A stretch of DNA of 64,000 bases from an uncultured Gammaproteobacteria bacterium. Lineage in GTDB: Bacteria > Patescibacteriota > Microgenomatia > Levybacterales > UBA12049. The stretch lies in NCBI GenBank assembly GCA_964503265.1, contig CAZCYO010000004.1:3191-67190 (forward strand), read 5' to 3'. The notes below the pieces were generated by a model. The model was given only the letters and a program-made list of their open reading frames with translations, was not told where the DNA came from and made no database searches. A program made the position numbers and the translations under genes. Each line of letters starts with the position of its first letter. Within the stretch, counting starts at the first letter, position 1. Below, piece by piece: positions 11,610 through 43,327 of this stretch.

Positions 11610-11705
11610 AATGAGTTACCCACAAAAAAGTCATCCAGTACTTGAGTATCTCTCTCAGGCAGAAAAAGCAGTAGGATGACGGCTTCTTGAATTATTTATT
11701 CTAGT

Positions 11706-17746: not shown

Positions 17747-18253
17747 TCACCCCCGAGCATTCCACCGCTTAGTATCGTGACGATCGTTGTTCACTTGAAC
17801 GACAGTGAAGAGTTCAGTGATAGCTGTAATCGCCTCAGTGAAAGACAGAACATGCTGTCGTTCTATCTCTCCCAATTCGCCGATCGTCAAGTGCGCGTTG
17901 GCGCGAATCTCTTCGTCAGATGGACGAATATCCAAATGAATCATCACGCGAATGAGCTTCGCCTTTTGGCGAGGTGTGTACCTTCCTGCTCCCTTAAAGA
18001 GAACGGACTTGACCCGCTCTTTAAGCGAAGTCATAAGAACTGTGTGAAGTTCGCCTATCCGGTCCTGAACTTGCCGAAAGTCGGAACTTCCTTCTTCCAG
18101 CATGTTACATAAGTCAGTGATACTCCTTCGTACCTCTTTGCCGATTGGTTCATATGGAACTAATCGGCACTCTACTAAAGTATGCACCACTTGAAGTGAT
18201 GCTAGGAGATCTGCTGGTACTCGTTGTCGAGTGCGCGAACTCAGTGCAAGCAT
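17747..18253 (-). CDS. Hypothetical protein (GC-elevated gene, candidate horizontal acquisition)
   Basis: About 48% GC against a background near 40%. The second in-frame ATG (MLALSS...) is preceded by GGAGGT at optimal spacing, so the start is placed at 18253. No motif recognised. Confidence 0.45.
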   Translation of the reverse strand: MLALSSRTRQRVPADLLASLQVVHTLVECRLVPYEPIGKEVRRSITDLCNMLEEGSSDFRQVQDRIGELHTVLMTSLKERVKSVLFKGAGRYTPRQKAKLIRVMIHLDIRPSDEEIRANAHLTIGELGEIERQHVLSFTEAITAITELFTVVQVNNDRHDTKRWNARG

Positions 18254-18388
18254 GAAACACCTCCGTACCGTGAGCATACTGTGGAGGATCTTCCTCCCAC
18301 CAAACCCGATGGTCTCGTGGGAAAAAGATACTCAACTATTTAGTGTAGAAGTATACCACGAATACAATTCCAAGCTCAACCCAAGTCA

Positions 18389-28846: not shown

Positions 28847-28918
28847 AGGGGTGTGGTGAAATGGTTATCACAGCAGTCTCCAAAACTGCTTTTCACGGTT
28901 CGAGTCCGTGCACCCCTG
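28847..28918 (+). tRNA. tRNA-Trp (anticodon CCA), CCA end not encoded
   Basis: Acceptor AGGGGTG/CACCCCT; D-arm GTGA-AATGGTTA-TCAC; anticodon arm GCAGT-CTCCAAA-ACTGC; T-arm CACGG-TTCGAGT-CCGTG. The rpmG then tRNA-Trp order is the conserved arrangement. Confidence 0.85.
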
Positions 28919-28969
28919 CAATATTGTTGACATTGCCTTCCATTTCTTCAAAAATATAAGTAGAAGTCT

Positions 28970-29593
28970 ATGAATAGGTTGCTGTTACTCCTTATCCTAT
29001 ATTTCATCTTAAAAGGACTATGGTATCTCATAAATAATCCTGCTAAGAAACTAAATGAGTCAGTGTTTAGTGAGGGCGAAAAACCTCATGAGCTGCGCGA
29101 CTTAACAAAAGCAGAATTACGACTTCTCACTGACCAAATCAATCGAGCAAAAGTTGCGATAGCTATCTCGATCCTGCCGCTGATTTTCTGTCTTAGTGTC
29201 GGTGTCATACATGCAACATATTCGACCCTCAATGTAACTTCTATTATTAATTTTCTCTACGGAATTCCCTATATGATTAGCACAGGACTTTCATTGTTTC
29301 TTGTATTGGAAGGATATAATACTTATCAACGTCTTACTGCTGATAAAAAAACTAAGATTTATAAAGTAACGGGGAAAGTATTTATCTTCAAACAACTCTT
29401 TTTGCGCTACCCTCGGTACATCGTGATCCAAAAAATTATTTTTCGACTTCATGATCCAGCAAATACATTTGCCTTTAAATTCAAGCCTTGGCCTATATTG
29501 GAACAACTAAACACCTATAAAAACGGAGATTCCTTGGAAATCGAATACTCCCCGATCTCGAAACATATCTGGAGAGTAACTCTGCATTCATAA
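28970..29593 (+). CDS. Hypothetical membrane protein
   Basis: 207 aa with 3 TM segments. No family recognised. It occupies the place where secE-nusG usually follow tRNA-Trp. Confidence 0.4.
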   Translation: MNRLLLLLILYFILKGLWYLINNPAKKLNESVFSEGEKPHELRDLTKAELRLLTDQINRAKVAIAISILPLIFCLSVGVIHATYSTLNVTSIINFLYGIPYMISTGLSLFLVLEGYNTYQRLTADKKTKIYKVTGKVFIFKQLFLRYPRYIVIQKIIFRLHDPANTFAFKFKPWPILEQLNTYKNGDSLEIEYSPISKHIWRVTLHS

Positions 29594-29686
29594 CTTATCA
29601 TCCCGTTTCTATTTATTATTATTAGGCACGAATGTTATACAACTTGTGCAGGAATCGAACCTCTTATTGACTTTTCTTTTATTTGA

Positions 29687-30535
29687 TTGTCATACTTTGT
29701 ATACATGGACGGACAAAATTCTCAACAGCCAGTACCTCAACAACAGCCCGTCATGGCTCAAATACCAGCTCCGTACCCTCACATACTAATAATGGTTCTG
29801 ATTGGACTAATGATGTTCGGAGTAGGGTTAGGTGGGGGATATTTTCTGTTTGCAAATAAAGCGCGACCTGTTTCAGAGACACTAACTAAACAAGTTACAC
29901 CGACAACGATAACAACCATATCAGACGCAAATACGACTTCTTGGAATACTCTAAAGAATGAGACAGGGTTTAGTCTTCAATATCCCCCTACATATAAAGT
30001 ATTTGGAGAGAATATGACAGGAGATGCAAAAAAAGATTCTTCAATTTCTTTACTAAAGATGGATGAATCTACCAAACTGTATCATTCCATATATATCTTT
30101 GTAACCGATAAATCACAAACTGTTAATAACAATGTATCGTTACAACAAATTGTACAAAACGATTTTAAATCAAGTAGAGGACAAATAATAAAACCAGTAC
30201 AAGAGATCTCTGTTGATAACAATACCGCGTATACGTATTCTGTACTCGATAATGGTTTTCAAGGAAAAGATGCAGGTATTGCATTTATTAAAAGTGAGAA
30301 ACCAGAAGAAATTAACGTTATTGAAGTAGATAAGGAAAATAAGCATTATGTAATAATGTATATTAATAATCCTATTAACGAAAGAATTATCTCTACCTTT
30401 ACATTTACTGCTAACGAAGTAGGACTTGGAGAGACCTGTTTAGGACGTTCTACAAATGTCTGCTCCAATGGACTAAACTGTCGTCAAGCAGAAGGATCTG
30501 CCGCTGATGCTCCAGGAATTTGTGTAAAAAGATAG
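29687..30535 (+). CDS. Hypothetical membrane-anchored extracellular protein with Cys-containing C-terminal module
   Basis: Gln/Pro-rich N-terminus, one TM helix, a Thr-rich linker, and a C-terminal 'GETCLGRSTNVCSNGLNCRQ...GICVKR' segment with four Cys. Confidence 0.45.
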   Translation: MSYFVYMDGQNSQQPVPQQQPVMAQIPAPYPHILIMVLIGLMMFGVGLGGGYFLFANKARPVSETLTKQVTPTTITTISDANTTSWNTLKNETGFSLQYPPTYKVFGENMTGDAKKDSSISLLKMDESTKLYHSIYIFVTDKSQTVNNNVSLQQIVQNDFKSSRGQIIKPVQEISVDNNTAYTYSVLDNGFQGKDAGIAFIKSEKPEEINVIEVDKENKHYVIMYINNPINERIISTFTFTANEVGLGETCLGRSTNVCSNGLNCRQAEGSAADAPGICVKR

Positions 30536-30597
30536 TTTCTAATATTTTTACTTAGAACCTTTGTTTAAGGATAAAAATATACTTATTTGAGGAAGAA

Positions 30598-31131
30598 TTA
30601 AAATGGATAGCCTTTAAGACCCTGGATCCCTTTAAGAACAGCTACTTCTCCCATGATCGAGTAAATATGACCACTAATGAGATTCGCGATAAAGTCATAG
30701 ACTTTTTTCGGTTCCATACCAAATGCACTCATATCGACATCTTTTTCTAAATCTTCAGCAGAGAGTGATGCGACATATTCTTCACTCGCTGCATACACTG
30801 CTTTCGTATATTCACGAAACTGACGTATATCCACTTTTACCTCTTTTAACCACTTAGGATATGCTACTTGCCATTCCATAGGGTGGAGTTCACTCGCACC
30901 TGTTTTATCTTTAAATGTCGTTTCACAGAGCGGTTCAGTCTTTTTTAGAAAGTTATGAATGAAAAGATCTTCTGAAAATATGAGATGCGCATATGTGCCG
31001 GCGATGGGATTTGCTTTGGCTGGGGGCATGAAGTGCGCGACTTCGTCAGTCACACCCTCCATCGTCTGCTCAAGTGCACCATGTGCTGCTTTTAATTGCT
31101 CAACTAATATCTGTGTGGCGAGATTATTCAT
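30598..31131 (-). CDS. DinB/YfiT-like four-helix-bundle protein (putative)
   Basis: 177 aa, helical, with His residues spaced as in DinB_2 family members (EVAHF..., YAHLIFSEDL...). Weak assignment. Confidence 0.3.
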   Translation of the reverse strand: MNNLATQILVEQLKAAHGALEQTMEGVTDEVAHFMPPAKANPIAGTYAHLIFSEDLFIHNFLKKTEPLCETTFKDKTGASELHPMEWQVAYPKWLKEVKVDIRQFREYTKAVYAASEEYVASLSAEDLEKDVDMSAFGMEPKKVYDFIANLISGHIYSIMGEVAVLKGIQGLKGYPF

Positions 31132-31244
31132 ATTATTTAGTATACCAGATAATCTATGGTACTAAAGGTAAGATAAGGAAAATAGAATAATACTATACTC
31201 GTAGAATTATTGACTTACCCTTTTATACTTGAAATACTTACAGT

Positions 31245-31547
31245 ATGGAAATGGAGACAACTGCGCAATCTACACCGCTCGTTACAGAACCAACTCAACA
31301 GGAAGTACCCCAAATAGTTGAGAATAAAAGTAAAAAAAAGCTTGTTATGGTGGTGTCACTTATCAGTCTCCTCTTTATTTCTGGAGGATACTATGTCTAC
31401 CAACGATATATGAAATCACATTATCCAGTTCTCACTGAAAAATCAGCTACTACACCAGTAACTCCTGAGAAAAAAGAAAATCTTAATCCTAATTCTGGGA
31501 ATTTATATAAGGATATAAAAATACGCATGAAAGAGGTGTTGCAATGA
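31245..31547 (+). CDS. Small membrane-anchored hypothetical protein
   Basis: 100 aa with a single TM helix. Its stop overlaps the start of the next ORF. Confidence 0.35.
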   Translation: MEMETTAQSTPLVTEPTQQEVPQIVENKSKKKLVMVVSLISLLFISGGYYVYQRYMKSHYPVLTEKSATTPVTPEKKENLNPNSGNLYKDIKIRMKEVLQ

Positions 31548-32707
31548 AAAAAATAGTTTTCGTGCTGCTTCTTTTTATGGTCGGAATCGTCACTGTCCCG
31601 ACTGCTCACGCGAAAATATGGAGTCGTAATTTGATTACGAAAGCAATCCTTTCAAATGGATTTATGGCTTCTATCTGCCCGACGAACATGTCGTCTACTG
31701 AAGTACTTGATCCTGTCGCAACTATGGAAACAGATGATGTACCACAGATAAAGAATTCCGACTGTACAGGAAACGATGAAGAGGTGTTATTTGGAGATAT
31801 TACTCTTGAATTTAAAGAGGGAGGAACGGGAAAAGAATATATCATTCTCTATAACGACGATTTACTTCGCGCAGATACTTTTCAATTTGGCTATTATAAA
31901 AACTGGTCACTTGGCGCTGTCGCTCCTCCAAATGCTGATGGAAAAACGTATCACGGATTAAAATCTGTCATGGCAGACACGCTCTTTAAAACAGATATCG
32001 CAGTTCCGGATCTTCAAGAAAAGATACCTGAGAGTGGATTTCTAACTGTGTACGGAAAAGATGGAACAATCGATCACACCTACTTCGTGTTTAAAGCGAA
32101 AGTATATAAAGTAACTGAGATTAAAAAAGAAGTAACAGACAAAATTCTCGTAGATTACACTGTTCCAAGCGAACCCACCCAAGTAAATAATCAAGATATA
32201 ACACCGACGGTATTACCCACTTCTTCAGCAACAAATAATACAAAAATCTACCAGAATACGACGTATAAATTTACATTCTCCTATCCAGACTTTTTTATTC
32301 AGGAAAAATCTACTCCCGAAGCACTTGCTAGTTTTGCAGGCAAAGAGAATCGAATTAGTGTCAGTGTTGATCAAAAACCATTTAATGATTTCACCTATAT
32401 GGACTTATCAGCCACAGAATATAAATATGATTTGGTTAACAAAAAATGGATGAATATCACAAGTCCTGCAAAAGAAGTAACAGAAATTAAAAAAGTTCCA
32501 GGCAGTCTTGAGGCGTATGAAGCGGGATTTGGAGATGGGATGTGCGGAGGAAGTATTTTCTTCATTCCTTCGCCTACTTACTCATATGTCATACGATTAT
32601 CAACGACAATCTGTGCACATATGAATGAGAAAACACAGCTTTTTGAAACCCCAGAATACAAACTATCTAATACAGATATCCTCTCCTCATTTACCTTTAC
32701 TAAATAA
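31544..32707 (+). CDS. Secreted hypothetical protein
   Basis: Signal peptide MKKIVFVLLLFMVGIVTVPTAHA, then 360 aa with no recognisable motif. Confidence 0.45.
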   Translation: MKKIVFVLLLFMVGIVTVPTAHAKIWSRNLITKAILSNGFMASICPTNMSSTEVLDPVATMETDDVPQIKNSDCTGNDEEVLFGDITLEFKEGGTGKEYIILYNDDLLRADTFQFGYYKNWSLGAVAPPNADGKTYHGLKSVMADTLFKTDIAVPDLQEKIPESGFLTVYGKDGTIDHTYFVFKAKVYKVTEIKKEVTDKILVDYTVPSEPTQVNNQDITPTVLPTSSATNNTKIYQNTTYKFTFSYPDFFIQEKSTPEALASFAGKENRISVSVDQKPFNDFTYMDLSATEYKYDLVNKKWMNITSPAKEVTEIKKVPGSLEAYEAGFGDGMCGGSIFFIPSPTYSYVIRLSTTICAHMNEKTQLFETPEYKLSNTDILSSFTFTK

Positions 32708-32983
32708 CCAAATAACTCCTCATTCAAAAGAAGCTAAACCTCTCTTCTTCATCATCAAAAAACAGGTGTGTATTTCTTTTTTTCAAAAAATTCTACTATA
32801 GGTTTACTTTCTTTTTATTTTTCAGTATAATTATAGGACTCATGTTCGCCCTTCGTGATGGCTGGGCGCACGCGTAGAGACGTGGACTACGGCAATTGCT
32901 GCCAGTGTCCCCTTCTCTACAATGGGGATCTTTGACATAGCAACGGAAGAATTGAAATTACACACAACAGAAAGGATGACTCG

Positions 32984-35149
32984 ATGCGTGATATTCGAGA
33001 TACACTCCGGCAAGCCGGAGATCTCGTCGACGGTGTCCGCGAACTCCGTGAGGAGTTTCGCACTCCAGAAGCTACCGAACGAACCCTCACCGTAAAAACG
33101 GAGACTGGGGGCGGTTTCCTGTGGTTCGGTGGAAGGCGTGTGGTAGTCCCCGCTGATGAGGTACACGTCGTATCTGGTGGTGGTCTGCTAACTGCTTTCC
33201 TCTCGAATAACGTTGAAATCTACGGTGCAGCTGCTGGCAAGCCGGTCATTTACCGGCGGAACAAATTCACGAACGTGACCGCTATGCGGACTATCACGTT
33301 CATCGTGCCTGTCTCCGGTGTCAGGGTGCTTGACAAAAATCACGTTCCCTACACAGTGACCGCCCACGTTTCAGGGCATCTGAATGTCGAGAAAGCACTC
33401 GAAGCAGCTCGTCAGGTTGGCAACAACATCTCCTCGTTGATCTCTCAGATCGAAGAGGTCACTGATGCCGAACTTCGTACTGCTGCTGCTAAGCTGACGC
33501 TGGCAGAGGTCCTTCAAGACCAGCAAGCATTGGCTGACTCTGCCCAAACGAAAGTCAATGCCACACTGGTCGAGTTGGGCTATACGCTGAACCTCCTGAA
33601 AATTCAGGATGTCTCAGGTGAAGCCTACGAGAAGCTCGTCACCCAAGCCTTGGTGGAGGTCACCAGGGACAGCACTGTCCGCATCAATGCGGCGGAGCTG
33701 ACAACCAACCAGAGCAACAACGAACGTCTGCGAACTGAAGCTGAGGTTACGGCTGCGACCCGTCGTGGGACGGAAGCACAGGGCCTCGAAGCAGATCGCG
33801 ACGTTCAGCTCTCTAGGCTGGGAACTGAGAACGAACTGTCGATTCGGCAACACGCTCTGACGCTTGAACAAACAAGGCGTAAGAGCGAAGCAGCCCAAGA
33901 ACAGCAACGACTCGGTCTCCAGCAAGTTGAGCTCGACAAGGGCGTTGAGCTGGCTCAAGTCCAGCGCAATGCTCAGGTCAAGCAGACTCAACAGGAGCTC
34001 GATCAGAAGCTCGCCTTCCAGACAAGCGAGGCGGATGCAACCCGCAGGGCTGCTGAGCAGCAGAGGGATCAGGAGCGCAAAGCTGCGCTGACTGAGGCCG
34101 AGGCCACTCGCCTTGCTCGCGAAGAGTCCGCAAAGGCGGAACGCGATCGGGCTGTGAAGCTCGTCGAAGCAGAAGCAGCGGCACAAGCGCTTCATGTTCG
34201 AACACAGGCTGAAGCACAGGCAGCCGGTATCCTCGTTGAATCAGAGACACAGGCTGAACTGCTTCGCGCTAAGCGCGTTGCCGAAGCTGAAAGTGTCCGT
34301 GTCGATGGGGAAACCAGGAGCTTGCTGCTTCGCGCTCAACGTGACGCTGAAGGCGCACTACAAGTCGCTCAGGCGGAAAAAGTCCGCGCTGAGGCAACTC
34401 GTGCACATGATGCAGCACCCGGTCTCGCTAAGGCTGACGTTGCCGCCCGTGAGGTGGAAATTGAAGCCGCACGCGTAACCGTCCTTCGGGATAAGGGTCT
34501 CGCTGAGGTCGAAGTTGCTGGCAAGCAAAATCAGGTGGAACTTGATCGCCAACGTGGCGAGAGTGACATCCAGATTACAGCCCAGCAGCAACTCGCTACT
34601 CTCTACGCGGAAGCTCCGATCCTCGTCGAACTCGAACAGCAACAGCGCCAATTGGCGCATGCGCTCGAGCTCGCCCGGGTCGATGCAGCTGCCCGCGTGC
34701 AGATCATGCAGGCGCTCGCGCCTAACATCCACCTCCACCTCGTTGGTGACGGTGGGAAGCTCAGCCAGTTCCTCTCGCAGGTTCTGGCCTTTGGCGATGC
34801 CTATCAGACGATGGGGGGCACGCTCCCCATGCTCGCTGATGGGTTGCCAAACGGAGTAACTGTCGGCAACAGCCTCGGTGAAACCGCGATGGGCACACTG
34901 TCGCAGGTTCTGCCTGCGATCAGCGCCGCCATCAAAGAGATGGACCCAGGCGTCATGACCACCCTGACGGCGTCCCAACTACTGGACGCAGTCATCCCTG
35001 TCCTCGAAGGTCGCGAGGATGCGCTCTCTGCAGTAACCAAGCTGCGTGGGTCTCTCGCATTCAAGGCAGTAGCCAATCTGCCAGCGATGAGCGTGCTGAA
35101 GCAGTTCGGCATCGACATCACAGGAAGCGAAGCCATCACCGCTTCTTAA
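32984..35149 (+). CDS. Flotillin-like SPFH/band-7 domain protein (high-GC gene)
   Basis: 721 aa. An N-terminal SPFH-like domain is followed by a long Ala/Glu/Gln-rich coiled coil typical of the flotillin C-terminus (EAEAAAQALHVRTQAEAQAAG...). GC is about 60% against a background near 40%. Confidence 0.7.
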   Translation: MRDIRDTLRQAGDLVDGVRELREEFRTPEATERTLTVKTETGGGFLWFGGRRVVVPADEVHVVSGGGLLTAFLSNNVEIYGAAAGKPVIYRRNKFTNVTAMRTITFIVPVSGVRVLDKNHVPYTVTAHVSGHLNVEKALEAARQVGNNISSLISQIEEVTDAELRTAAAKLTLAEVLQDQQALADSAQTKVNATLVELGYTLNLLKIQDVSGEAYEKLVTQALVEVTRDSTVRINAAELTTNQSNNERLRTEAEVTAATRRGTEAQGLEADRDVQLSRLGTENELSIRQHALTLEQTRRKSEAAQEQQRLGLQQVELDKGVELAQVQRNAQVKQTQQELDQKLAFQTSEADATRRAAEQQRDQERKAALTEAEATRLAREESAKAERDRAVKLVEAEAAAQALHVRTQAEAQAAGILVESETQAELLRAKRVAEAESVRVDGETRSLLLRAQRDAEGALQVAQAEKVRAEATRAHDAAPGLAKADVAAREVEIEAARVTVLRDKGLAEVEVAGKQNQVELDRQRGESDIQITAQQQLATLYAEAPILVELEQQQRQLAHALELARVDAAARVQIMQALAPNIHLHLVGDGGKLSQFLSQVLAFGDAYQTMGGTLPMLADGLPNGVTVGNSLGETAMGTLSQVLPAISAAIKEMDPGVMTTLTASQLLDAVIPVLEGREDALSAVTKLRGSLAFKAVANLPAMSVLKQFGIDITGSEAITAS

Positions 35150-35211
35150 TAACACATACGACCGCTGGCACTCGCTAGCGTTCGCACTCTTCCGTGCTAT
35201 GTCATCCCTAA

Positions 35212-35249
35212 GGCGCGAGTGGATCTTCCACTCGCGCCTTTTTCGTTTT
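35212..35249 (+). terminator. Rho-independent terminator after the flotillin gene, preceded by a TGTCATCC head
   Basis: ggcgcgagtgga / tctt / ccactcgcgcc followed by tttttcgtttt. 'tgtcatccc' lies immediately upstream at 35200-35208. Confidence 0.75.
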
Positions 35250-35398
35250 ATAAGAATTATATTCCCCCCTTAAAATAACCACTAGCAATTGATTGAGTTC
35301 AGTTTTTTGTTACAATCGCTCGACTGTTCGTTACATAGCGCATGATAAGAGCCACTCATCCGTTTCTCCAGGGCTCATGTCATATGAATAGTGCTTAA

Positions 35399-36319
35399 TT
35401 ATCGAAGAGATTGTTCCTGAGGAAGATTGAGTAACTCTGAAACTTTTACAAATTCAAATCCTTTTGAAGTAAGTTCTTTTATAATCGCGGGTAATGCGTC
35501 GGCGGTTTTTGGAGCTGTGGGTGCTCCGTTCATGTGAAGAACGATAATCGATCCATTCTGTGTTCGATCAACGACATTTCTGATAATTTGATTTGTGTTT
35601 TCATTAAACCCATCCTCGCCTACTGTATCCCAGTGCACGACTGTGTCACCTATTTGATTGACAAGTTTTACATCATCAGGGGAATAACACCCACCCGGAA
35701 AACGGAATAACTGATTATCAACACCCGCTCTTTCACGAAGTAACTTTTCTGTCGTCCCTAAATCCTCCATCGCAAGAGCACGAGATAGCTCTTTAAGTCC
35801 GAAACATGCTCCATGATATGAACTATCTGTATATGAATGACTTCCTAGTTCAAATAGTGGGTTACGAGCAAATTCTTCAGTCTCTTTCGGATATAACTCA
35901 ATCCACATGCCAGTTAAAAATAATGTGGCTTTTGTTTTCGTTTTATTGAGTATGTCGATGATCCGTTTATCATAGGAGCTTTTAACAGTTCCAGAAACAT
36001 ATGCAGCTTTCATCCCATCAGTCATTTCAGCATCAAAGGTCAGTGCTATCTGTTTTTTATCTCTCGGACCATGCAAAATCACAAGTGGGTTCTCTTCATT
36101 ATTGACTGAATCATAGGGACTTCCCCGCTCAATATAGTTTTCTTCAGGGCGTAACGATTTCTCATTTGACACACCAAGAATATTCTTGGAATTGTGGGCA
36201 AAAGCAAAGTAAGTAACAGCAGAGGAAATACTGATCAGGAGAAAGGTATACACAAAAAGTTTGACGAGTATTGATGAGTTTTTCTTGGCTTTTCGATATA
36301 ATTTCTTTCGTAATTTCAT
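35399..36319 (-). CDS. Polysaccharide deacetylase (NodB homology domain, CE4) family protein
   Basis: N-terminal TM anchor; 'ALTFDAEMTDGM' (CE4 motif 1-like), 'FRFPGG' and 'IIVLHMNGA' blocks. Confidence 0.65.
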   Translation of the reverse strand: MKLRKKLYRKAKKNSSILVKLFVYTFLLISISSAVTYFAFAHNSKNILGVSNEKSLRPEENYIERGSPYDSVNNEENPLVILHGPRDKKQIALTFDAEMTDGMKAAYVSGTVKSSYDKRIIDILNKTKTKATLFLTGMWIELYPKETEEFARNPLFELGSHSYTDSSYHGACFGLKELSRALAMEDLGTTEKLLRERAGVDNQLFRFPGGCYSPDDVKLVNQIGDTVVHWDTVGEDGFNENTNQIIRNVVDRTQNGSIIVLHMNGAPTAPKTADALPAIIKELTSKGFEFVKVSELLNLPQEQSLR

Positions 36320-36397
36320 TTGCCAAATTCTCGCAGGTTATTACAAAAGAGTCAATAAACACTTAATAAAGATATTCCTTCCTGGTACACTACATCC

Positions 36398-37594
36398 ATG
36401 TCGCTTTTCAACGGAATAAAAAAACTAAAAACGCTCCCCGGTCCAGTTGTTGTATTAGGGTTAGTGAGTTTTTTTAATGATTTATCATCAGAAATGATTT
36501 ATCCGATCGTGCCACTTTTTTTAACAGGCGTGCTTCACACCTCAATTCCAGTAGTGGGACTGATCGAAGGTGTTGCAGAGGCGACAGCTAGTATTATGAA
36601 ATTTTTCTTTGGCTGGTATTCTGATTATCTTCAGAAAAGAAAACCGTTTGTGACTGGGGGTTATATGCTTGCTGCTGCATCAAAAATCCTCATCGGCCTG
36701 GCATTTTCATGGCCTCTTGTACTCGGTGCGAGAATTGTTGACAGGCTAGGGAAAGGAATGCGAACTGCAGCACGCGATAGTATTCTGCTTGAAAATTCGA
36801 CAAGCGTAAATAAAGGGTATATTTTTGGGTTTCACAGGGCATTTGATAGTCTTGGGGCCGTATGTGGACCGCTCATCGCACTTGGAATTCTCGCACTCGT
36901 CAAAGAAAATATTCGACTAACATTTTTTATCGCGTTTATTCCAGCGGTCATTGCGGTGTTACTCCTTGTAGTATTAGTGAAAGAGAAGAAAAAGCCTTTC
37001 ATACGCACCAAGCTCTCGTGGCCTTCTACTACTTTTTTACAGATGGACACGAAGCTCAAATTATTTTTAGGAATCAGTTTTATTTTTTCGATTGGAAATA
37101 GTTCAGACGCCTTTTTACTCCTCCAAGCTAAAAATCTTGGGCTTACTGCGACACTCGTCGTCCTCGCATATGTACTCTACAATATCTCTCAGACGGTATT
37201 TTCTACACCGCTTGGCCACCTGTCAGATCGAATTGGAGCAAAGAAGATTTTCGCAGGAGGACTCCTCGTTTTTGCGATTGTTTACTTTTTCTTTGGATTT
37301 ATAACACATAGTGCGTGGTTATGGCTTCTTTTTCCAGTCTATGGCATCTATATCGCGGCAACAGATGGCATATCAAAAGCATATATCGGAGAATTTATCG
37401 ATAAAAAAGACTCTGGAACATTTTTCGGCGCGTATTATTCCATAACAGCACTGGGGACATTACTGGCATCAGTTATCGGAGGGCTTCTCTGGTCAGGGAT
37501 CGGACCATCCTATACGTTTTATTTTGGAAGTATGATGGCTTTTGCAGCATTTTTGCTCTTTTATTTTTCCTCGTCACTTTTCGCACAGCGCTGA
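36398..37594 (+). CDS. MFS transporter
   Basis: 12 predicted TM helices; MFS motif A-like 'GARIVDRLGKGMRTAARDS'. Confidence 0.8.
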   Translation: MSLFNGIKKLKTLPGPVVVLGLVSFFNDLSSEMIYPIVPLFLTGVLHTSIPVVGLIEGVAEATASIMKFFFGWYSDYLQKRKPFVTGGYMLAAASKILIGLAFSWPLVLGARIVDRLGKGMRTAARDSILLENSTSVNKGYIFGFHRAFDSLGAVCGPLIALGILALVKENIRLTFFIAFIPAVIAVLLLVVLVKEKKKPFIRTKLSWPSTTFLQMDTKLKLFLGISFIFSIGNSSDAFLLLQAKNLGLTATLVVLAYVLYNISQTVFSTPLGHLSDRIGAKKIFAGGLLVFAIVYFFFGFITHSAWLWLLFPVYGIYIAATDGISKAYIGEFIDKKDSGTFFGAYYSITALGTLLASVIGGLLWSGIGPSYTFYFGSMMAFAAFLLFYFSSSLFAQR

Positions 37595-37634
37595 TTTACT
37601 TGACTTTACAAAACCCTGTTGAAATACTTGATAT

Positions 37635-38333
37635 GTGGAAGAATCAACAAACTCAGTCTCACCAGACATACAGCCGAGTATGCCAGAGCAGCCAGAACCT
37701 GTTCCAGATGTTCCTTCTTCATCATTTTTTACAATAAATAAATTTATTCTCGGTGGTATAGCATGTTTCATGTTTATTATCGTCGGGATTGGGCTTTTTA
37801 TGTTCTTACCAAAAGGCTCGAATTCTAAAAAAATTGTTCCTACGCAAGTCCCGACTCCCACAGTCACACTCATACCAACGAAAAAACCAACTATCTATCC
37901 AACATCCTACCCACCAGTAACAAGTATCCAGAAATTCCCTACTCCAACGAGTAAACCATCACAAAATTCAGGCGGCCAGACAACCTCCGTAGCAACACCT
38001 ACCCCAACTCCTACTCCAATTAGAACAACAGGAAGTATTAGTGGTGGATTTTATGACTCAGCAACCAATACGCCTCTTACTGATTCTCGATTTGCTGCAG
38101 CAGTCGTCAGCAGTGTGAGTGTGGGTAACAGTCAGAGTAAACCGACATGGAAAATTGATAATTTAAAACCTGGTCACTACCAAGTAAGTATCGATGTTGA
38201 TACCTCAAAATATAATCAACATAGTGTTACCTGCACCAACTGCACGCTATCAAATATTCAATTTGCTTCTGCTGAAGTTGATTTAAAAGCAGGCGAAGAC
38301 ATCCAAACAGTCTGGACATTCGATCCAAAATAA
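37635..38333 (+). CDS. Membrane-anchored extracellular hypothetical protein with Pro/Thr-rich linker
   Basis: TM helix at residues 45-65, a PT-rich linker (PTQVPTPTVTLIPTKKPT...TPTPTPTPIRTT), and a C-terminal beta-rich domain. Confidence 0.45.
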   Translation: MEESTNSVSPDIQPSMPEQPEPVPDVPSSSFFTINKFILGGIACFMFIIVGIGLFMFLPKGSNSKKIVPTQVPTPTVTLIPTKKPTIYPTSYPPVTSIQKFPTPTSKPSQNSGGQTTSVATPTPTPTPIRTTGSISGGFYDSATNTPLTDSRFAAAVVSSVSVGNSQSKPTWKIDNLKPGHYQVSIDVDTSKYNQHSVTCTNCTLSNIQFASAEVDLKAGEDIQTVWTFDPK

Positions 38334-38371
38334 GTTCCAATCCGCTTCTAAAGTACGTATAATAATAGAGC

Positions 38372-39007
38372 ATGGATCGATATAAACTGCTCGGAATCAT
38401 TAACTTCATTGAACTTCTCTGGTTTACTTTTATCATTTTCACTTTTCAATACAGTCATAAACCGGCTGGCTCACTTTACTCAATAACTAAAACATACGCA
38501 CCACTCCTCGTCATTGTTGGACTAGCATGCATTACCATATACGTTTTATATACACTTCGTACCACACACTCCAAAAAACGTTCTTTCCCTCTCTTAAGCA
38601 TGCTAACCATACTGCCAATTATTTGGTTCTTTTTTGCATTCTTTGGTTTCTTTTTTGTGTCACAACCACTCTTTCCCATTAGTGCGTTTTTACTCGCTTG
38701 TGCTGCCTACTATTTCTTTAATAACATCTCTCGTCGTCTCGCAATCGCAATTCCACTAGCGACCTTAGTAATTATGGGTGTAGTTATCTTCTCAAATTTT
38801 GAAGAGGACTATTGCACGAGAGCAGGAGTGATAGCTGACCCAACTGGTGGAAAATATGTACAAGCCACTTCTGATGATGCGAAATTACTCGCATGGAATA
38901 ATGTTAGAAAAGGTGATCAAATAGGTGTCGCATTTCGAGCACACTTTCGCTGTCATAACACATTTCATTTTATAGACGCACTTCAGAAAAGTTATTTTCT
39001 TAGGTAA
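38372..39007 (+). CDS. Hypothetical integral membrane protein
   Basis: 5 TM helices in the N-terminal 140 aa. The C-terminal soluble tail has a conserved-looking 'GDQIGVAFRAHFRCHNTFHF'. Confidence 0.4.
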   Translation: MDRYKLLGIINFIELLWFTFIIFTFQYSHKPAGSLYSITKTYAPLLVIVGLACITIYVLYTLRTTHSKKRSFPLLSMLTILPIIWFFFAFFGFFFVSQPLFPISAFLLACAAYYFFNNISRRLAIAIPLATLVIMGVVIFSNFEEDYCTRAGVIADPTGGKYVQATSDDAKLLAWNNVRKGDQIGVAFRAHFRCHNTFHFIDALQKSYFLR

Positions 39008-39045
39008 GTTGCACGCACCACATCGGTTCAGTACAATACATCAAC

Positions 39046-40272
39046 ATGAAAAAATTATTTACTAATAAAAGTTTTATCTTCATCATGATTACGACGTTTC
39101 TGGCTGTCATGGGAATTGGAATTATTATCCCTGTGGTTCCATTTCTGGTGAGTAAATATATGCCTGGAGCATCGAACGCAGCAATTGCGCTTAACGTCGG
39201 TCTCCTTTTTTCCGTCTATTCGGTCTGTCAATTTTTTGCTGCACCGGGGCTTGGTGCACTTAGTGATAAATATGGACGGCGGCCTGTTCTGTTAGCGTGT
39301 TTAGTGGGCTCAGCATTTGGCTATTTGCTCTTTGGGATCGGTGGATCACTCACTATTCTTTTTATTGGACGCATTATTGATGGCCTAACAGGTGGAGATT
39401 TGGGAACGATTTTCGCCTATGTGGCTGATGTTACAAAACCTGAAGAACGAGGACAAGTCTACGGAATTATCGGAGCGTTAATCGGTGTCGGATTTATGAT
39501 TGGACCAAGTATTGGTGGTTTTACTAGTCTCATTAGTTTAAATGCACCATTTTACTTAGCAGCTATCATAACGCTCGCAAATGCGATATTTGGCTACTTC
39601 GTTCTTCCAGAATCACTCAAAAAAGAAAACCGTATGGCTGATTTTTCCCTTCACCATCTCAATCCCTTTGGTACACTCCTCAGCGTTCTCTCAAATGTCA
39701 CAGTTCGAACGGTGCTCTTAATCGGCTTTTTCTATTTTCTCCCTTTTGCAGCTCTCCAAGGAATTGGTGGGATTTACTCTAAAGATATTCTGCACTGGAC
39801 ACCTGCGAATATCGGCATCTTTTTTATGATAATCGGACTCGTTGACATCATAACTCAGGGATTTTTATCAGGGAAATTAATTCCAAAATTTGGAGAATTA
39901 CATTTAGTTCTCACAGGGCTTGTTATAACAGGCATCGCATATCTATGTAATGCAGCACTTCTCTACTATCCAGTCACATGGTTTGCCTATCTTAGTGTGA
40001 TTATTTTTGCATTCGGAAGTGGACTTCTTGAACCGTCTCTGGGTGGACTTATCTCTAGAGCCGCCAGCCCAAGTGAACAAGGTCGTGTCCAAGGAGCGAA
40101 CCAATCACTCCAATCAATTACGCGCATCATCGGCCCACTTATGGCGACATATCTCTATGGTTTTATGCCAAATCTCCCCTATCTTCTTTGTGTCGCACTC
40201 TCAATCGTCGCCTTCTTCTTCGTCTATACTCAGAAAAAAATCATCCTCGCGCATATCCATGCCAGCAAATAA
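39046..40272 (+). CDS. MFS drug:H+ antiporter family transporter (TetA/Bcr-like)
   Basis: Motif A 'GALSDKYGRRPVLL', antiporter motif C-like 'GRIIDGLTGG', and 12 TM helices. Confidence 0.8.
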   Translation: MKKLFTNKSFIFIMITTFLAVMGIGIIIPVVPFLVSKYMPGASNAAIALNVGLLFSVYSVCQFFAAPGLGALSDKYGRRPVLLACLVGSAFGYLLFGIGGSLTILFIGRIIDGLTGGDLGTIFAYVADVTKPEERGQVYGIIGALIGVGFMIGPSIGGFTSLISLNAPFYLAAIITLANAIFGYFVLPESLKKENRMADFSLHHLNPFGTLLSVLSNVTVRTVLLIGFFYFLPFAALQGIGGIYSKDILHWTPANIGIFFMIIGLVDIITQGFLSGKLIPKFGELHLVLTGLVITGIAYLCNAALLYYPVTWFAYLSVIIFAFGSGLLEPSLGGLISRAASPSEQGRVQGANQSLQSITRIIGPLMATYLYGFMPNLPYLLCVALSIVAFFFVYTQKKIILAHIHASK

Positions 40273-40309
40273 TCTTGCATTCATTCTCGTCGCGTGAAAT
40301 ACTAAACAT

Positions 40310-40912
40310 ATGGATTCGACTGAGTATACATCACCTCGACGTAAGCCTGGATTTTTCCAAGATAGCACGAACTTTTTACTCATCGGTATTATCGGTATTC
40401 TGATTATTCTCCTTGGCGGCATTTATGTTCTGATCAGCAGATCACGCATGATATCTCCACAAAAACCTACCACTTCCCAAGCACCAATCCCAACTATTAC
40501 CCTATCTAAAACGATGACTGTCTTTACAAGCAAGCTTGGCTTTAGCATCATGTATCCTGATAACCTCACTCCTGTTGAACATGTAGGTAAAAAATCCGTT
40601 ACCTTTACTAATGCAATAACAGGTAATCAAATAGACTATCTCACAGTTACGATCGTCCCCGTTCCATTTAAAAACTCACCCACAGCAAATAGAACAACTG
40701 ACGATATTAACTACGTAACAGACTGGAAAGAAATAACGGTGAATGGTCAAAAAGGACACAGCTACATTACAAACCCCTGCAAAGAAACATGCCGCACGCT
40801 CACAGTTGATTTACCCTTTACTAACGGGACTAACATCTTAACTATTACATCTTCACGAATTGATTCGAAATTATTTAATGAAATTGTTTCAAAAGTTACA
40901 CTCAAAAAATAA
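40310..40912 (+). CDS. Membrane-anchored extracellular hypothetical protein
   Basis: One TM helix near the N-terminus followed by a beta-rich domain. Adjacent to a larger protein of similar organisation. Confidence 0.4.
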   Translation: MDSTEYTSPRRKPGFFQDSTNFLLIGIIGILIILLGGIYVLISRSRMISPQKPTTSQAPIPTITLSKTMTVFTSKLGFSIMYPDNLTPVEHVGKKSVTFTNAITGNQIDYLTVTIVPVPFKNSPTANRTTDDINYVTDWKEITVNGQKGHSYITNPCKETCRTLTVDLPFTNGTNILTITSSRIDSKLFNEIVSKVTLKK

Positions 40913-40914
40913 CT

Positions 40915-42093
40915 ATGGAACAAGACTTTTACAACGAGCAACAAGAAAAAATCTCCCAGCAAGCATCAGCCGAAGTACAACCTGCATCGATGCCACCTGC
41001 CAAAAAGCCGAAAATAGTCTTGTTACTACTCGCAGTGATACTTCTTGGGATTGGCGCAGCTGGTGGATACTTTCTCGCTAACTCTAAGAACTCAGCAAAC
41101 ATAGCAGAAGTAATAACCCCATCTCCTCAAAAAATTAGTCCAACAAGTATTCCTACCCAGACAATGGATCCTGAAACAGCATCCTGGAAAGTATATTCTC
41201 AGCCAGCACTATATTTTAGCTTTCGGTATCCTGAAAACTATAACATTATTAGCGAAGAGCCTAGAAAAGTTGTTCTGGGTTTTTCCTCTCCTTCAGACGA
41301 CACACTTATTCCTTATCTCACTGTTACGATGGACGGATCATCCTCCTATGAAAAACTAACAAACTGTATCAAAGATTCAGTTATACCATGTGTCAAAAAT
41401 AAAGAATCGATAACCGTGAATAATGAAGCAGCAACCTCAGTTAGCATTACAGGAGGAGTAGATTATGCATATTCTGTCGTAACACTTCCAGGAAATCCAA
41501 GTATTGAACTTAGTATGAATGTCGCAGGTGGCGGACTTTCACAAACATTTAGTAACATTCTTTCAACTGTACGCATTGGAACAACGTTTGAGAAACCCCA
41601 GACAGCGTTTGGGAAAGTATATACAGATACAGTCCTCCCTATTTCCTTCAAATATGAATTTCCAACCTACGTAGTGAGTTCGAATATTTTTGATGGCACG
41701 TCTTTAAAAGCAGACAGGGAAATTTGGGTGAGTATTCCAAATTCTGACGGTGTACTCATGCAAATATATTATTATAAAAGCTCACTCAGCGCTGCAGATT
41801 GGTGGAATTCGATGGGAAAAGCCAAATTCGAGACTCTGCAATCAGCATTTATTACTGCAGTTAATCCAAAACCGACAGGTATCACAACTCCATCATTTAC
41901 CACAACTTCATTAGTCTTTGCTGGTCAAAATGCTATTCAGGCAAAAGGACACGTCAAAACCGGTCAGGGACCACAAGATGAAGCATTAACGATAGTACAG
42001 TATAAAGATGGGATTTATCTGATTCGTCCCATGGGACAGGTAAAAGAAAAACAGATTCTTGAGCAGACAATTAACTCAATTAAATTCCTGTAA
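40915..42093 (+). CDS. Membrane-anchored extracellular hypothetical protein
   Basis: 392 aa. Start lies 3 nt after the previous stop. TM helix at residues 33-55. No family recognised. Confidence 0.45.
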   Translation: MEQDFYNEQQEKISQQASAEVQPASMPPAKKPKIVLLLLAVILLGIGAAGGYFLANSKNSANIAEVITPSPQKISPTSIPTQTMDPETASWKVYSQPALYFSFRYPENYNIISEEPRKVVLGFSSPSDDTLIPYLTVTMDGSSSYEKLTNCIKDSVIPCVKNKESITVNNEAATSVSITGGVDYAYSVVTLPGNPSIELSMNVAGGGLSQTFSNILSTVRIGTTFEKPQTAFGKVYTDTVLPISFKYEFPTYVVSSNIFDGTSLKADREIWVSIPNSDGVLMQIYYYKSSLSAADWWNSMGKAKFETLQSAFITAVNPKPTGITTPSFTTTSLVFAGQNAIQAKGHVKTGQGPQDEALTIVQYKDGIYLIRPMGQVKEKQILEQTINSIKFL

Positions 42094-42399
42094 CCCTTTT
42101 GTCTGAAGAACCTTTTAGCCTCAAATAAACGCATCAATAACATCCTATAGCTTGATCTTGGGCTCGCTTTATGCTACACTTTTACGACGATTTAGAGTAA
42201 CTCTATTTCTTTTTTTGCATATTTACCCTCCTACGCTTATAGCTACGAAAGGGCAAGTATGTATATCACCCATAACCGAAAAGTAATGAGGTTCACCCCT
42301 CATAGCTTTAACCCAATTGAATCGAGTCTAGCGAAGTGGGGCACATTTACAATATAGTGTGATAATTAGCGAAGACTGCTAAAAGAGAAGACAACCAGT

Positions 42400-42460
42400 T
42401 GTCATCCTGAACTTGATTCAGGATCCAGTCTAATAGTTTCCTGCCTTCGCAGGAATGACA
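42400..42460. repeat. Inverted pair of TGTCAT-headed hairpin repeats (BIME-like dimer)
   Basis: Forward copy TGTCATCC-tga-acttgat-tca-GGAT (42400-42424). Reverse copy ttcctgc-cttc-gcaggaa-tgaca (42438-42460). 13 nt separate them. Confidence 0.7.
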
Positions 42461-42592
42461 GTTTATCTTTTCCTTTGGCAGTCTTCATATGGTGAGACCT
42501 CTGTCGTAGCACATCGTATGTGCAGCAGAGATCCTCTCACCGGGCAACAGTGAAGACTTGTTGAACATACTTCCAAATAAAAGGAGCATCCG

Positions 42593-43006
42593 ATGGCCAC
42601 ACAACTCGTGCCAAGTGCATTCCATGCCACCTCTCCTGAACCAGCGAACGTCGCACCTGAGACATTTCAGGCGATCATGACTCTAGCTGTCGCTGAAATC
42701 CAGCATGGGCTGGCACGCCTGCACATGCCCGAACAAGACATCAAGCGCGTCTCGGCGGTAGTTAATCGCGGTTTGGTTGGCAGCATTCTTGCTGCTCTGG
42801 AATTCCCCTACTCAAGTCCGGGAAGGAACCTCACGCTTACACCCAAGCGGGTGGAAGCAGTGAGGGCCGCCATCACCCATGAAGTCAGGCGACTGATTGA
42901 CACGGATGATGAAATCAACAACGCAATGGTCTCGACAGGGACCGTAGTCGCGATCGTCCGTGCGATTGGCCTCTTCCCGGTTCACACCGACTCAACAGAC
43001 CAGTAA
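42593..43006 (+). CDS. Hypothetical protein (high-GC gene)
   Basis: About 58% GC. A strong Shine-Dalgarno (aaaggag) sits 7 nt upstream of the ATG. 137 aa, helical, Ala/Val-rich. Confidence 0.5.
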   Translation: MATQLVPSAFHATSPEPANVAPETFQAIMTLAVAEIQHGLARLHMPEQDIKRVSAVVNRGLVGSILAALEFPYSSPGRNLTLTPKRVEAVRAAITHEVRRLIDTDDEINNAMVSTGTVVAIVRAIGLFPVHTDSTDQ

Positions 43007-43327
43007 TAGAGCTACTTAGGCCATTCATTCCTGCGTTCGTCGGCAGGTGAGTGGTCGCTCCAGTTTCTCGTCTGGGAGGAATTGCCCTCTTCCCGGGCTT
43101 CTCTATCACACTATTTGCACAGTGCAAAAATTACCTAACGCCGTTTGGCTTACAGTAACGATTCTTTTTTCGAACCCTTCAATTGCGAAGACTACCCGAA
43201 AAAATGTCCGAGCTGTTTCCCCCAACCGGCGTTTTTTCTTGGAAAAAAAGAGTTGCTAAGAAATTGTAGCGTTAAAATAAGAGTGTATTTTGACTCTTTA
43301 TAGTAAAAAAGATACAGTTAATACTAT

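Follow-up and report, generated by a model that had tools for sequence, protein, structure and literature searches.

A GC-rich gene for a flotillin-like SPFH protein, with complementary mRNA ends, in a low-GC and probably Patescibacteria-type genome

Introduction

How can a single gene keep a content of guanine plus cytosine (GC) about 19 points above that of the genome in which it resides? The question is raised by a stretch of 64,000 nucleotides from contig CAZCYO010000004.1 (the window in the following, meaning the whole stretch that was analysed), in which one gene on the forward strand, coding for a 721-aa protein of the SPFH superfamily, forms an abruptly bounded GC-rich island. A first inspection of the sequence, called the original prediction below, had taken the island for a recent horizontal acquisition from a high-GC donor, for example from the Actinobacteria or Proteobacteria, with a chimeric assembly join as the alternative. 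We come to a different conclusion and suggest that the island is an anciently acquired, self-contained unit for an anchor-less SPFH scaffold protein whose coding sequence (CDS) has been kept GC-rich by selection on the transcript. To this reading we give a probability of roughly 55%. It builds on a syntenic ortholog of the same composition in a second genome, on the recurrence of similar islands in other low-GC contigs and on non-coding parts which are conserved at host composition. In addition, the two untranslated regions (UTRs) of the transcription unit are complementary to each other. The placement of the window itself rests on its TopA protein, whose best named matches are Candidatus Levyibacteriota and Patescibacteria.

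The island and its transcription unit

The mean GC content of the window is 0.397, and that of the window without the gene is 0.390. In windows of 300 nt the GC content is 0.383 at 32650–32949 and 0.487 at 32800–33099, stays at 0.53–0.62 up to position 35199 and is back at 0.390 at 35200–35499. The step from about 0.27–0.38 to 0.53–0.62 spans positions 32838 to 35245 approximately, around one 721-aa open reading frame (ORF), and the remaining 1-kb bins of the window all have a GC content of at most 0.467. The SPFH gene has a GC content of 0.578 with 0.722, 0.428, and 0.586 at the first, second, and third codon positions (GC1, GC2, GC3), whereas the remaining 57 ORFs with a length of 100 aa or more, which serve as background, have 0.393 ± 0.046 and a GC3 of 0.318 ± 0.070. 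The gene lies about 3.8 standard deviations (sd) above these ORFs at GC3 and about 3.5 sd at GC1. Thus the 300-nt windows, the 1-kb bins, and the comparison of ORFs all confirm the GC-rich island with a single gene that had been predicted. The spurious opposite-strand ORFs of the original prediction were found as well: within the island there are five ORFs on the antisense strand and two in other frames of the sense strand, with lengths of 90–206 aa.

The GC3 is 0.57 in the part coding for the SPFH domain, 0.56 in the helical region, and 0.70 in the C-terminal domain, and with values of 0.49–0.70 in all regions it is high along the entire gene; the excess is therefore not merely an amino-acid effect of the coiled coil. 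Arginine is favoured over lysine (K/(K+R) 0.32 compared with 0.64 in the host), the G-ending two-fold codons AAG, CAG, and GAG are raised, and C-ending codons make up 0.35 of the 4-fold sites compared with 0.17. As the G-ending codons and the arginine to lysine ratio are shifted too, the composition of the whole coding sequence is shifted. The composition is, as had been stated, foreign to the genome, which makes a horizontal origin at some time likely.

The island is one complete transcription unit with its own promoter, leader, gene, and terminator, for which the following features were predicted:

32796..32831, + strand: promoter of the sigma-70 type, predicted, with CTATAG at 32796–32801, –35 element TTTACT at 32803–32808, a 17-nt spacer, and –10 element TATAAT at 32826–32831
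32838..32983, + strand: 5′ UTR (leader) of about 146 nt, its start placed from the position of the –10 element; Shine–Dalgarno (SD) sequence AAGGA at 32972–32976
32984..35149, + strand: CDS of the 721-aa SPFH-family protein, based on Pfam Band_7, the family alignment, and a structure model
35210..35249, + strand: intrinsic terminator, a stem–loop at 35210–35240 (14-bp stem with 9 GC pairs, 3-nt loop) followed by a T run

The promoter reaches 10 of 12 matches in a consensus scan and is AT-rich and outside of the GC island. The upstream intergenic region 32708–32837 has a GC content of 0.269 and the following 95 nt, the first part of the leader, have 0.568; the GC content climbs at about 32838, that is, about at the predicted transcription start, and predicted hairpins begin 1–2 nt from the presumed 5′ end. 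On the other side a 3′ UTR of 60 nt runs from the CDS to the terminator, which is the 3′ end of the island.

Integrity of the assembly

A GC-rich gene of another organism could have been joined to low-GC flanks by the assembler. The abrupt switch of composition at both borders would be expected from such a chimera, and the short-read assemblies of several relatives (L002, L069, L073, and L075–L077) stop no more than a few hundred bases away from it. However, a Logan contig (run SRR12487046; L003) encodes exactly the same protein and is 100% identical, with no gaps, to window positions 28867–42428. This stretch of 13,562 bp crosses both island borders and comes from a separate assembly run, possibly of the same reads. 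Furthermore, the junction sequences at the promoter and at the terminator side both recur in L001, a contig from another sample which is described below, and the same island pattern is seen in more than eight unrelated assemblies. The chimeric join offered in the original prediction can therefore be dropped; its probability is negligible.

Age of the gene

The closest homolog (P0001, 64% aa identity) is encoded on contig CAYUCP010000011.1 (L001, the same as L008). The record of this contig is titled "uncultured Gammaproteobacteria bacterium", yet it is syntenic with the window, and the label is probably wrong. The neighbours of the SPFH gene in L001 are orthologs of those in the window and have the same order: upstream a DinB-like gene and genes for proteins of 100 and 387 aa, downstream genes for proteins of 232 and 211 aa, a major facilitator superfamily protein, and proteins of 200 and 392 aa. 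On both sides the SPFH unit is flanked by insertions of lineage-specific genes. The seven flanking orthologs are 40–84% identical at the amino-acid level, and the 64% of the SPFH protein falls within this range. With a GC content of 0.581, a GC3 of 0.603, and flanks of 0.388 the SPFH gene of L001 deviates from its surroundings just as that of the window does.

Where the residue is conserved, the 4-fold degenerate sites of the SPFH pair have an identity of 0.38, compared with 0.27 expected at saturation; for the seven flanking pairs pooled the identity is 0.39 (n = 578) with saturation at about 0.27–0.28. The GC content at these sites (GC4) is 0.55/0.58 for the SPFH pair, and 0.22–0.48 per gene or 0.32 pooled for the flanks. 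As the SPFH gene and its neighbours have been diverging over the same time, and as the gene is GC-rich in both lineages, its acquisition is not recent. The same gene at a similar GC content in another genome of the lineage had been named in the original prediction as a refutation of a recent acquisition, and L001 provides just this. The genome ancestral to those of the window and L001 already had the gene.

The promoter is part of this conservation. The –35 and –10 elements and a CTATAGG element are conserved between window and L001 with a varying spacer, and the region 32795–32979 is 77% identical to L001, which is above the 68% of the CDS. The leader motif CTTTGACAT is conserved, and the non-coding parts are host-like in composition yet conserved. 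At the place of the terminator L001 has a hairpin of different sequence.

No signatures of mobility were detected at the borders. The nearest tRNAs are at 27.3–28.9 kb, no integrase or recombinase domain is present among the neighbours, no direct repeats longer than 14 nt flank the island, and no convincing repeats were found at its borders. No SPFH homolog is found among the PLSDB plasmids or the INPHARED phages, and two scans of the IMG/VR viral contigs gave one distant SPFH match of 22% alone.

A recent acquisition from a high-GC donor whose composition has not yet ameliorated would explain why the 19-point excess extends to GC3 (0.586 compared with 0.318) and to amino-acid use (K/(K+R) as above), and it would fit to a family that is mostly found in Chloroflexota of 45–61% GC and is distributed patchily outside of this phylum. 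It does not fit to the syntenic ortholog, which has the same GC content and whose synonymous sites are as saturated as those of the flanks, nor to a promoter which is AT-rich and conserved. In addition, the nearest relatives outside the clade are just 34–39% identical, no close relative is found in any high-GC genome, and the borders carry no integrase, tRNA, or direct repeats. Thus we consider a recent transfer very unlikely, and this part of the original prediction has to be given up.

Recurrence of GC-rich islands in the family

A scan of one genome per species yielded 44 loci, 43 of them in metagenome-assembled genomes (MAGs) of Chloroflexota (Anaerolineales, Promineifilaceae, Ardenticatenaceae, Caldilineaceae, and Thermoflexales). 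In the 38 Chloroflexota loci with enough flank GC3 follows the GC content of the flank (r = 0.89), and the gene exceeds the flank by 4.7 ± 2.9 GC points, which is the amino-acid contribution. In an Anaerolineaceae genome of 39% GC, for example, the gene has 43% GC and a GC3 of 0.29. The window gene lies 4.2 residual sd above the Chloroflexota regression, and the genes of L001, L068, and L072 lie 4.4, 5.4, and 5.3 sd above it.

Seven more low-GC contigs (33–49% GC) hold relatives of the gene as single-gene islands of 56–61% GC. These relatives have 39–49% aa identity where measured, and their contexts are mutually non-syntenic. The values for individual loci are (locus, protein, GC content of gene and flank, GC3):

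L068 (P0142): gene 0.608, flank 0.376, GC3 0.63
L070 (P0140): gene 0.607, flank 0.460, GC3 0.70
L072 (P0147): gene 0.562, flank 0.370, GC3 0.61
L074 (P0139): gene 0.578, flank 0.457, GC3 0.62
L075–L077 (P0002): gene 0.557, flank about 0.35–0.40, GC3 0.62
L078 (P0144): gene 0.585, flank 0.45, GC3 0.63
L079 (P0146): gene 0.582, flank 0.49, GC3 0.61

In a neighbour-joining tree the proteins of window and L001 group with P0142, P0140, and P0143 (49, 47, and 41% identity), and the next group comprises P0002, P0139, P0144, P0147, and others; both groups are apart from the main Chloroflexota cluster. No clade member was found in a high-GC context, as all 10 non-Chloroflexota loci examined have contexts of 33–49% GC. 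In hosts of moderate to high GC content, namely Chloroflexota, the identity of the best relatives is 34–39%, and a scan of Joint Genome Institute (JGI) metagenomes with a clade-specific alignment gave no close relatives, the best match having 36%. A donor from the Actinobacteria or Proteobacteria, as had been proposed, finds no counterpart here: the relatives of 34–64% identity are all from Chloroflexota MAGs or low-GC contigs.

The CTATAG-N0-2-TTKA-N17-TAnAnT layout of the promoter is also present upstream of the SPFH genes in L068, L070, and L072, and a motif CTTTGACA(T) is common to the leaders of window, L001, L068, L070, and L071. With Rfam at gathering thresholds just four tRNAs were found in the whole window, and in E-value mode the SPFH leader and the leader of a second GC-rich islet (see below) gave sub-threshold noise alone.

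Translational selection on a very highly expressed gene that uses GC-ending optimal codons would be in line with the near-consensus promoter (10/12) and with the enrichment of C-ending codons at 4-fold sites (0.35 compared with 0.17). However, housekeeping genes are not shifted, with a GC3 of 0.29 for mreB and 0.30 for topA in the window and of 0.22 for rpoB and 0.27 for clpB in L068, which speaks against an adaptation of the codons to high expression. The rise of G-ending two-fold codons and of arginine over lysine, too, fits to a shift in composition and not to tRNA matching. We regard this explanation as still less probable than a recent transfer.

Several of the contigs with relatives are short. 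Those of L075, L076, L077, L002, L069, and L073 are 2.5–3.8 kb long (L075–L077 just 2.5–2.7 kb) and end about 100–370 nt from the gene, and a 2.7-kb contig of the L075–L077 group, whose flanks have a GC content of about 0.35–0.40, carries the label "Syntrophales", probably as a result of composition-driven mis-binning. GC-rich islets in low-GC genomes seem to be prone to contig breaks and mis-binning.

Complementarity of the 5′ and 3′ UTR

The conserved leader motif is the reverse complement of a conserved motif in the 3′ UTR (inverted repeat I17). The two arms are:

32933..32950, + strand: 5′ arm TGACATAGCAACGGAAGA, complementary to 35188–35204 over 17 bp with one bulged A
35188..35204, + strand: 3′ arm TCTTCCGTGCTATGTCA; the counterpart in L001 is TTCCTTGCTATGTCA

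Arms were evaluated by local alignment compared with 1000 shuffles, which replaced RNAduplex over the whole UTRs as the latter over-extended the duplexes. The results for the loci with an arm-like complementarity are:

Window: 17 bp, p < 0.001
L001: 15 bp, p < 0.001
L071: 11 bp, p = 0.006
L070: 13 bp, p = 0.02
L078: 17 bp of unrelated sequence, p = 0.004
L068: 8 bp at the homologous motif, p = 0.15

Nothing was found in L072, L074, L075, L079, and WWE3, and of 16 Chloroflexota loci 14 likewise gave nothing (p > 0.05), the other two being L015 (p = 0.002) and L012 (p = 0.03). In L015, a Chloroflexota MAG locus around 9788–12058, an 11-bp stretch at –17 to –7 before the start is complementary to positions +45 to +55 of the 3′ UTR; other members of the family may thus have a contact between 5′ and 3′ UTR of a different form.

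For the covariation test four sequences were used, L070 being left out because it was misaligned by MAFFT of the concatenated arms. Over the 17 pairs of this alignment 80.6% of the cells are paired, compared with 27–45% for a slid partner, and 5 of the 17 pairs have changed on both sides; none of 500 shuffles reaches the observed values. The UTRs are thus complementary, with covariation.

The arms could also act in DNA, as the inverted repeats that bound a mobile cassette or a gene segment subject to inversion (phase variation). In favour of this the 17-bp inverted repeat brackets the whole CDS with the promoter outside, tyrosine recombinase genes are near the SPFH gene in L068 and L074, and assemblies often break near the gene. 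On the contrary, no recombinase is near the gene in window, L001, L070, L071, and L078, while L074 has an adjacent recombinase yet no arms. In all six loci with arms the gene is in sense orientation to the promoter in the assemblies (reads were not looked at), the contig breaks are 250–370 nt outside of the arms and not at the arms, and a target-site duplication is absent. As promoter and leader are conserved outside of the arms, the conserved unit is larger than the segment bounded by the repeats; moreover, G-U pairs and bulges are tolerated in the helix. An action in DNA is therefore improbable. The single orientation, the breaks away from the arms, the missing target duplication, the conserved promoter and leader outside, and the G-U pairs and bulges favour an RNA helix, which we predict from these sequence features.

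Interactions of this kind have been described for two bacterial mRNAs. In the hbs mRNA of Bacillus subtilis a 14-bp interaction between 5′ and 3′ UTR modulates the cleavage of the leader by RNase Y (PMC5737220), and in the icaR mRNA of Staphylococcus aureus the interaction of both UTRs controls translation (PMC3868564). As in these mRNAs, a helix of 14–17 bp is predicted here to join the leader of a message to its own 3′ UTR, ahead of the terminator. The loop in the window would span 2.2 kb, and unlike in icaR the SD sequence is left uncovered, the 5′ arm being 34–51 nt before the start.

The position of the 3′ arm bears on a further claim of the original prediction, according to which a native TGTCATCC head fused to the terminator marks the integration in this genome. 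This 8-mer occurs at 35200–35207 and has 10 copies in the window compared with 1.8 expected. However, most of 35200–35207 is the end of the 3′ arm, and the conserved 3′ UTR motif around 35200 reads TGTCAGCC in L001. As it lies in a conserved motif pairing with the 5′ UTR, TGTCATCC was rejected as a native integration mark; the resemblance is due to chance, and the native repeat is TGTCATCCTGAACTTGATTCAGGATC.

The SPFH protein

Pfam Band_7 (PF01145) matches residues 101–215 with E = 4.3e-10 and 40.4 bits compared with a gathering cutoff of 23.6, which confirms the SPFH identity of the 721-aa protein. The predicted likeness to FloT and YqiK holds at the level of the superfamily but not for FloT itself, as the NCBIfam FloT equivalog NF058507 reaches 17.2 bits compared with a cutoff of 700. 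The protein has a variable N-terminus (1–45), the SPFH domain (about 46–215), long helices (213–578, about 365 aa), and a conserved C-terminal domain (about 581–721). In the family alignment a conserved GRRxxVPxDExHVV motif, the SPFH domain, the helices, and the conserved C-terminal domain are recognized. An AlphaFold2 (AF2) model computed from 18 sequences has a mean predicted local distance difference test score (pLDDT) of 57; the SPFH alpha/beta domain is modelled with a pLDDT of 66–81 and is followed by a helix of 200 residues (213–413) and more long helices up to 578, whereas the C-terminal domain is poorly modelled.

A Foldseek search of the PDB with this model finds the flotillin complexes 9l3g and 9bq2 first (E about 3e-9), followed by stomatin, prohibitin (PHB), HflK/C, and erlin, and more weakly by the major vault protein (MVP). 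The matches to flotillin, stomatin, PHB, HflK/C, and erlin have E values of 1e-9 to 1e-6, and isolated SPFH domains superpose with a root-mean-square deviation of 2.5–3.2 Å. By sequence, stomatins come closest among the PDB entries (E = 0.016). No transmembrane (TM) segment or hydrophobic anchor was detected; the maximal hydropathy over 19 residues (KD19) is 1.39, within the SPFH and C-terminal domains, and the N-terminus is hydrophilic.

The family is rare. A word-index search found 17 clusters among 5.8 billion, and its repetition with the clade alignment returned the same 17 proteins, coiled-coil words saturating the candidate list. An exhaustive profile search of 1.84 billion representatives gave 51 matches with E ≤ 1e-30, about 25 of them full-length (50%-identity clusters), and the next SPFH proteins beyond the family appear only at E of about 1e-11. 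Judged by these comparisons, the protein is a distinct and rare flotillin-like subfamily of the SPFH superfamily and neither FloT nor YqiK.

Like FloT and FloA of B. subtilis, YqiK of Escherichia coli, and flotillin-1/2, the protein has an SPFH domain followed by a long Ala/Glu/Gln-rich helical region. The helical part of flotillins is roughly half as long as the about 365 aa of the window protein. Unlike flotillins, the protein is devoid of an N-terminal hairpin or TM anchor (maximal KD19 as above) and has an extra conserved C-terminal domain, and its gene has no NfeD nearby. The missing NfeD partner had been predicted correctly: NfeD (PF01957) was found neither among the window ORFs scanned nor in the called genes around the window gene and around 11 homologs (12 contexts). 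With stomatin/QmcA-YbbJ and HflK/C it shares the SPFH fold (Foldseek E 1e-5 to 1e-8). Stomatin/QmcA and HflK/C have 250–420 aa, are membrane-anchored, and are encoded next to NfeD or FtsH partners, whereas the window protein has 721 aa, no anchor, and a solitary gene. The match to MVP (9z4w, 9mxv; E about 3e-6 to 7e-6) covers an SPFH-like domain and a long helix in a protein which is likewise soluble. MVP builds soluble cages whose shoulder is SPFH-like and which have a cap helix, and it is a conceivable model for an anchor-less SPFH cage; yet its nine N-terminal repeat domains are absent from the window protein, the TM-scores are about 0.2, and no sequence similarity was found.

Flotillins have been described to form large membrane-attached cages (PMC11260169). 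By analogy and as suggested by the model, the protein probably forms a large oligomeric ring or cage via its long helices. By the same analogy with flotillin, stomatin, and HflK/C such an assembly could scaffold a membrane patch or enclose a compartment.

PADLOC and PHROGs gave no match for the SPFH protein or for the small GC-rich ORFs of the window, and our literature search found nothing relevant on SPFH proteins in Patescibacteria or on GC-rich genes in the candidate phyla radiation (CPR). A gene for a DUF1361 membrane protein is directly upstream of the SPFH gene in L001 (2937–3575) and two genes downstream of it in L078 (6006–6581), the contexts being otherwise unrelated. DUF1361 was rejected as a partner since the window has no homolog, and its nearness in L001 and L078 is possibly a coincidence.

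Why does the GC excess persist?

The bulk of the family is found in Chloroflexota/Anaerolineae, which suggests that low-GC, Patescibacteria-type genomes received the gene lineage horizontally in the distant past. Since then the neighbours and the gene's own promoter would have been at host composition, with the CDS about 19 GC points higher at all three codon positions. We infer that this excess is actively maintained. Four observations support maintenance: a GC3 that stays close to 0.6 although the hosts range from 36 to 49% GC, the host-like but conserved non-coding parts, the lack of sampled donors, and a second GC-rich cassette in window and L001 behind the same type of promoter. Candidate causes are the stability or structure of the mRNA, the expression level, or biased conversion. 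The most likely cause would be selection on the transcript (stability, structure, expression) and not on the speed of translation. The helix of 15–17 bp would close the mRNA into a loop, probably shielding the leader from RNases.

In the model of Lawrence and Ochman a horizontally acquired genomic islet undergoes amelioration. The SPFH island resembles such an islet, as a single gene is foreign at GC1, GC3, and the amino-acid level and is distributed patchily. Unlike an ameliorating islet, its deviation outlasts a saturating synonymous divergence and recurs at a GC3 of about 0.6 in many low-GC hosts, and no mobility genes or repeats are present at its borders. The main rival of a maintained composition is nevertheless an old acquisition with slow and incomplete neutral amelioration, in which a very GC-rich donor (GC3 >0.85) would have delivered the gene just before the split of window and L001, the other loci being independent imports. 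The F81 model with bootstrap permits this at the edge, as the GC4 needed at the split under neutral drift has a median of 0.97 (95% confidence interval 0.82–1.18), and in L071 and WWE3 the process appears to have reached completion. However, at least six independent imports would be needed, all at a GC3 of 0.61–0.70 in hosts of 0.36–0.49 GC. The GC-rich genes form clades with one another that are outside of the Chloroflexota clade. Their common promoter type is AT-rich and, like their common UTR motifs, would not be expected from GC-rich donors, and no donors were found among the 1.84 billion representatives. The second GC-rich cassette, too, is common to window and L001. Altogether we consider neutral amelioration unlikely, though clearly less so than the other alternatives dealt with so far.

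Several points weigh against selection on the transcript, the reading that we prefer. While 35% of the F81 bootstraps exceed a GC4 of 1.0, 65% give values of at most 1.0, and family members with a GC4 of 0.92–0.95 do exist, so that neutral decay from an extremely GC-rich import just before the split is barely tenable but tenable. Two clade members are host-like at GC3 (L071 with 0.30 and the WWE3 gene L004 with 0.39), and GC richness is therefore not required for function. The folding stability of the leader is indistinguishable from that of shuffles (z-score –0.4 to –1.0). GC richness and the UTR helix do not strictly co-occur: L072, L074, L075, and L079 are without the helix, and L071 has it. 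The divergence comparison uses one orthologous pair (window and L001) and the covariation test just four sequences, and the architecture of the protein past the SPFH domain is uncertain at a pLDDT of 57. Selection on GC as such is deduced from composition and distribution.

A more far-reaching proposal, which we put forward tentatively and consider doubtful, is that some low-GC, probably Patescibacteria-type genomes keep a few "GC-armoured" single-gene cassettes. These would have a dedicated promoter type, with CTATAG beside –35 and –10 elements close to the consensus, and a CDS held about 20 GC points above the genome through long periods of evolution; in the SPFH cassette the covarying helix would in addition connect both ends of the mRNA. 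The GC content would be a selected property of the message and not the fading trace of a transfer. A possible advantage would be that messages last long in cells which grow slowly and have few ribosomes; more speculatively, expression could be matched to that of a GC-richer partner cell.

The second cassette and other features of the window

The second GC-rich single-gene cassette extends over 42146–43130 in the window and over 15094–16048 in L001. Its promoter is of the same type (CTATAGCTTGATC, 17 nt, TACACT, at 42146) and is followed by a leader of about 440 nt, of which several blocks are better conserved than coding DNA (76% overall with L001). The ORF at 42593–43006 codes for 137 aa, has a GC content of 0.56 and a GC3 of 0.59, and has no match in Pfam, PHROG, or PADLOC. 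At the corresponding place L001 has a weakly homologous ORF for 173 aa (27% identity over 85 aa, E = 4e-4), which has a GC content of 0.62 and whose 3′ end is conserved.

The motif YTATAG-N0-2-TTKA occurs four times in the 64-kb window, and three of these occurrences are in promoter position before GC-elevated ORFs, namely the SPFH gene, the 137-aa ORF, and a 136-aa ORF at 63142–63552(–) with 0.48 GC. The sites are at 32796, 42145, and 63687(–) in the window, 3718 and 15094 in L001, 9283 in L068, 3440 in L070, and 7457 in L072. The count alone is not significant (2 strict occurrences, 0.74 expected); it is the placement that stands out. The motif may mark a regulon or a shared origin. A further ORF of elevated GC content (17747–18277(–), 176 aa, GC 0.49, GC3 0.47) is Arg-rich and without family match; it adjoins the mreBCD-PBP2 cluster and is preceded by AAATAGTTGAGT, a loose CTATAG-TTGA variant.

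The repeat TGTCATCCTGAACTTGATTCAGGATC resembles repetitive extragenic palindromes (REP) and is found at 42400, 45865, 53698, and 55148 (+) and at 53850 and 62993 (–). The copies are intergenic, mostly within tens of bases past a stop codon, and are often paired with a second palindrome TGTCATTCC...GGAATC. As their heads carry TGTCATCC, these elements cause the excess of this 8-mer in the window. A 64-nt copy at 42397–42460 in the leader of the second cassette is absent from L001; the element therefore is or was mobile.

An island of the opposite kind is the stretch 56155–59787, which is low in GC (0.28–0.35 per kb), contains glycosyltransferase genes (GT4, GT2, PMT_2-like), and is typical of variable surface-polysaccharide clusters.

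Significance

The transfer of a flotillin as such is ordinary. What is unusual, as a variation on what is already known, is the long-kept foreign composition together with the pairing of the mRNA ends. The protein, in turn, represents a subfamily that is new and rare within an established superfamily. Composition islands are routinely read as recent transfer, an inference which is wrong for this SPFH island. In addition, short contigs with the SPFH gene have apparently been placed in GC-richer bins, which could create false taxonomic distributions.

As a rare SPFH scaffold with neither anchor nor NfeD and with an unusually long helical region, the protein may form SPFH cages of a new kind. The covarying helix between 5′ and 3′ UTR over 2.2 kb adds a conserved case to the very short bacterial list. 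If the GC excess is selected, the gene would be a tractable natural case of gene-specific selection, on nucleotide composition or on the design of the mRNA, against genome-wide AT mutation pressure, and this selection would act in organisms whose gene-expression biology is almost unknown. The "GC-armoured" cassettes, if they prove true, would provide a clear natural case of a gene that resists amelioration.

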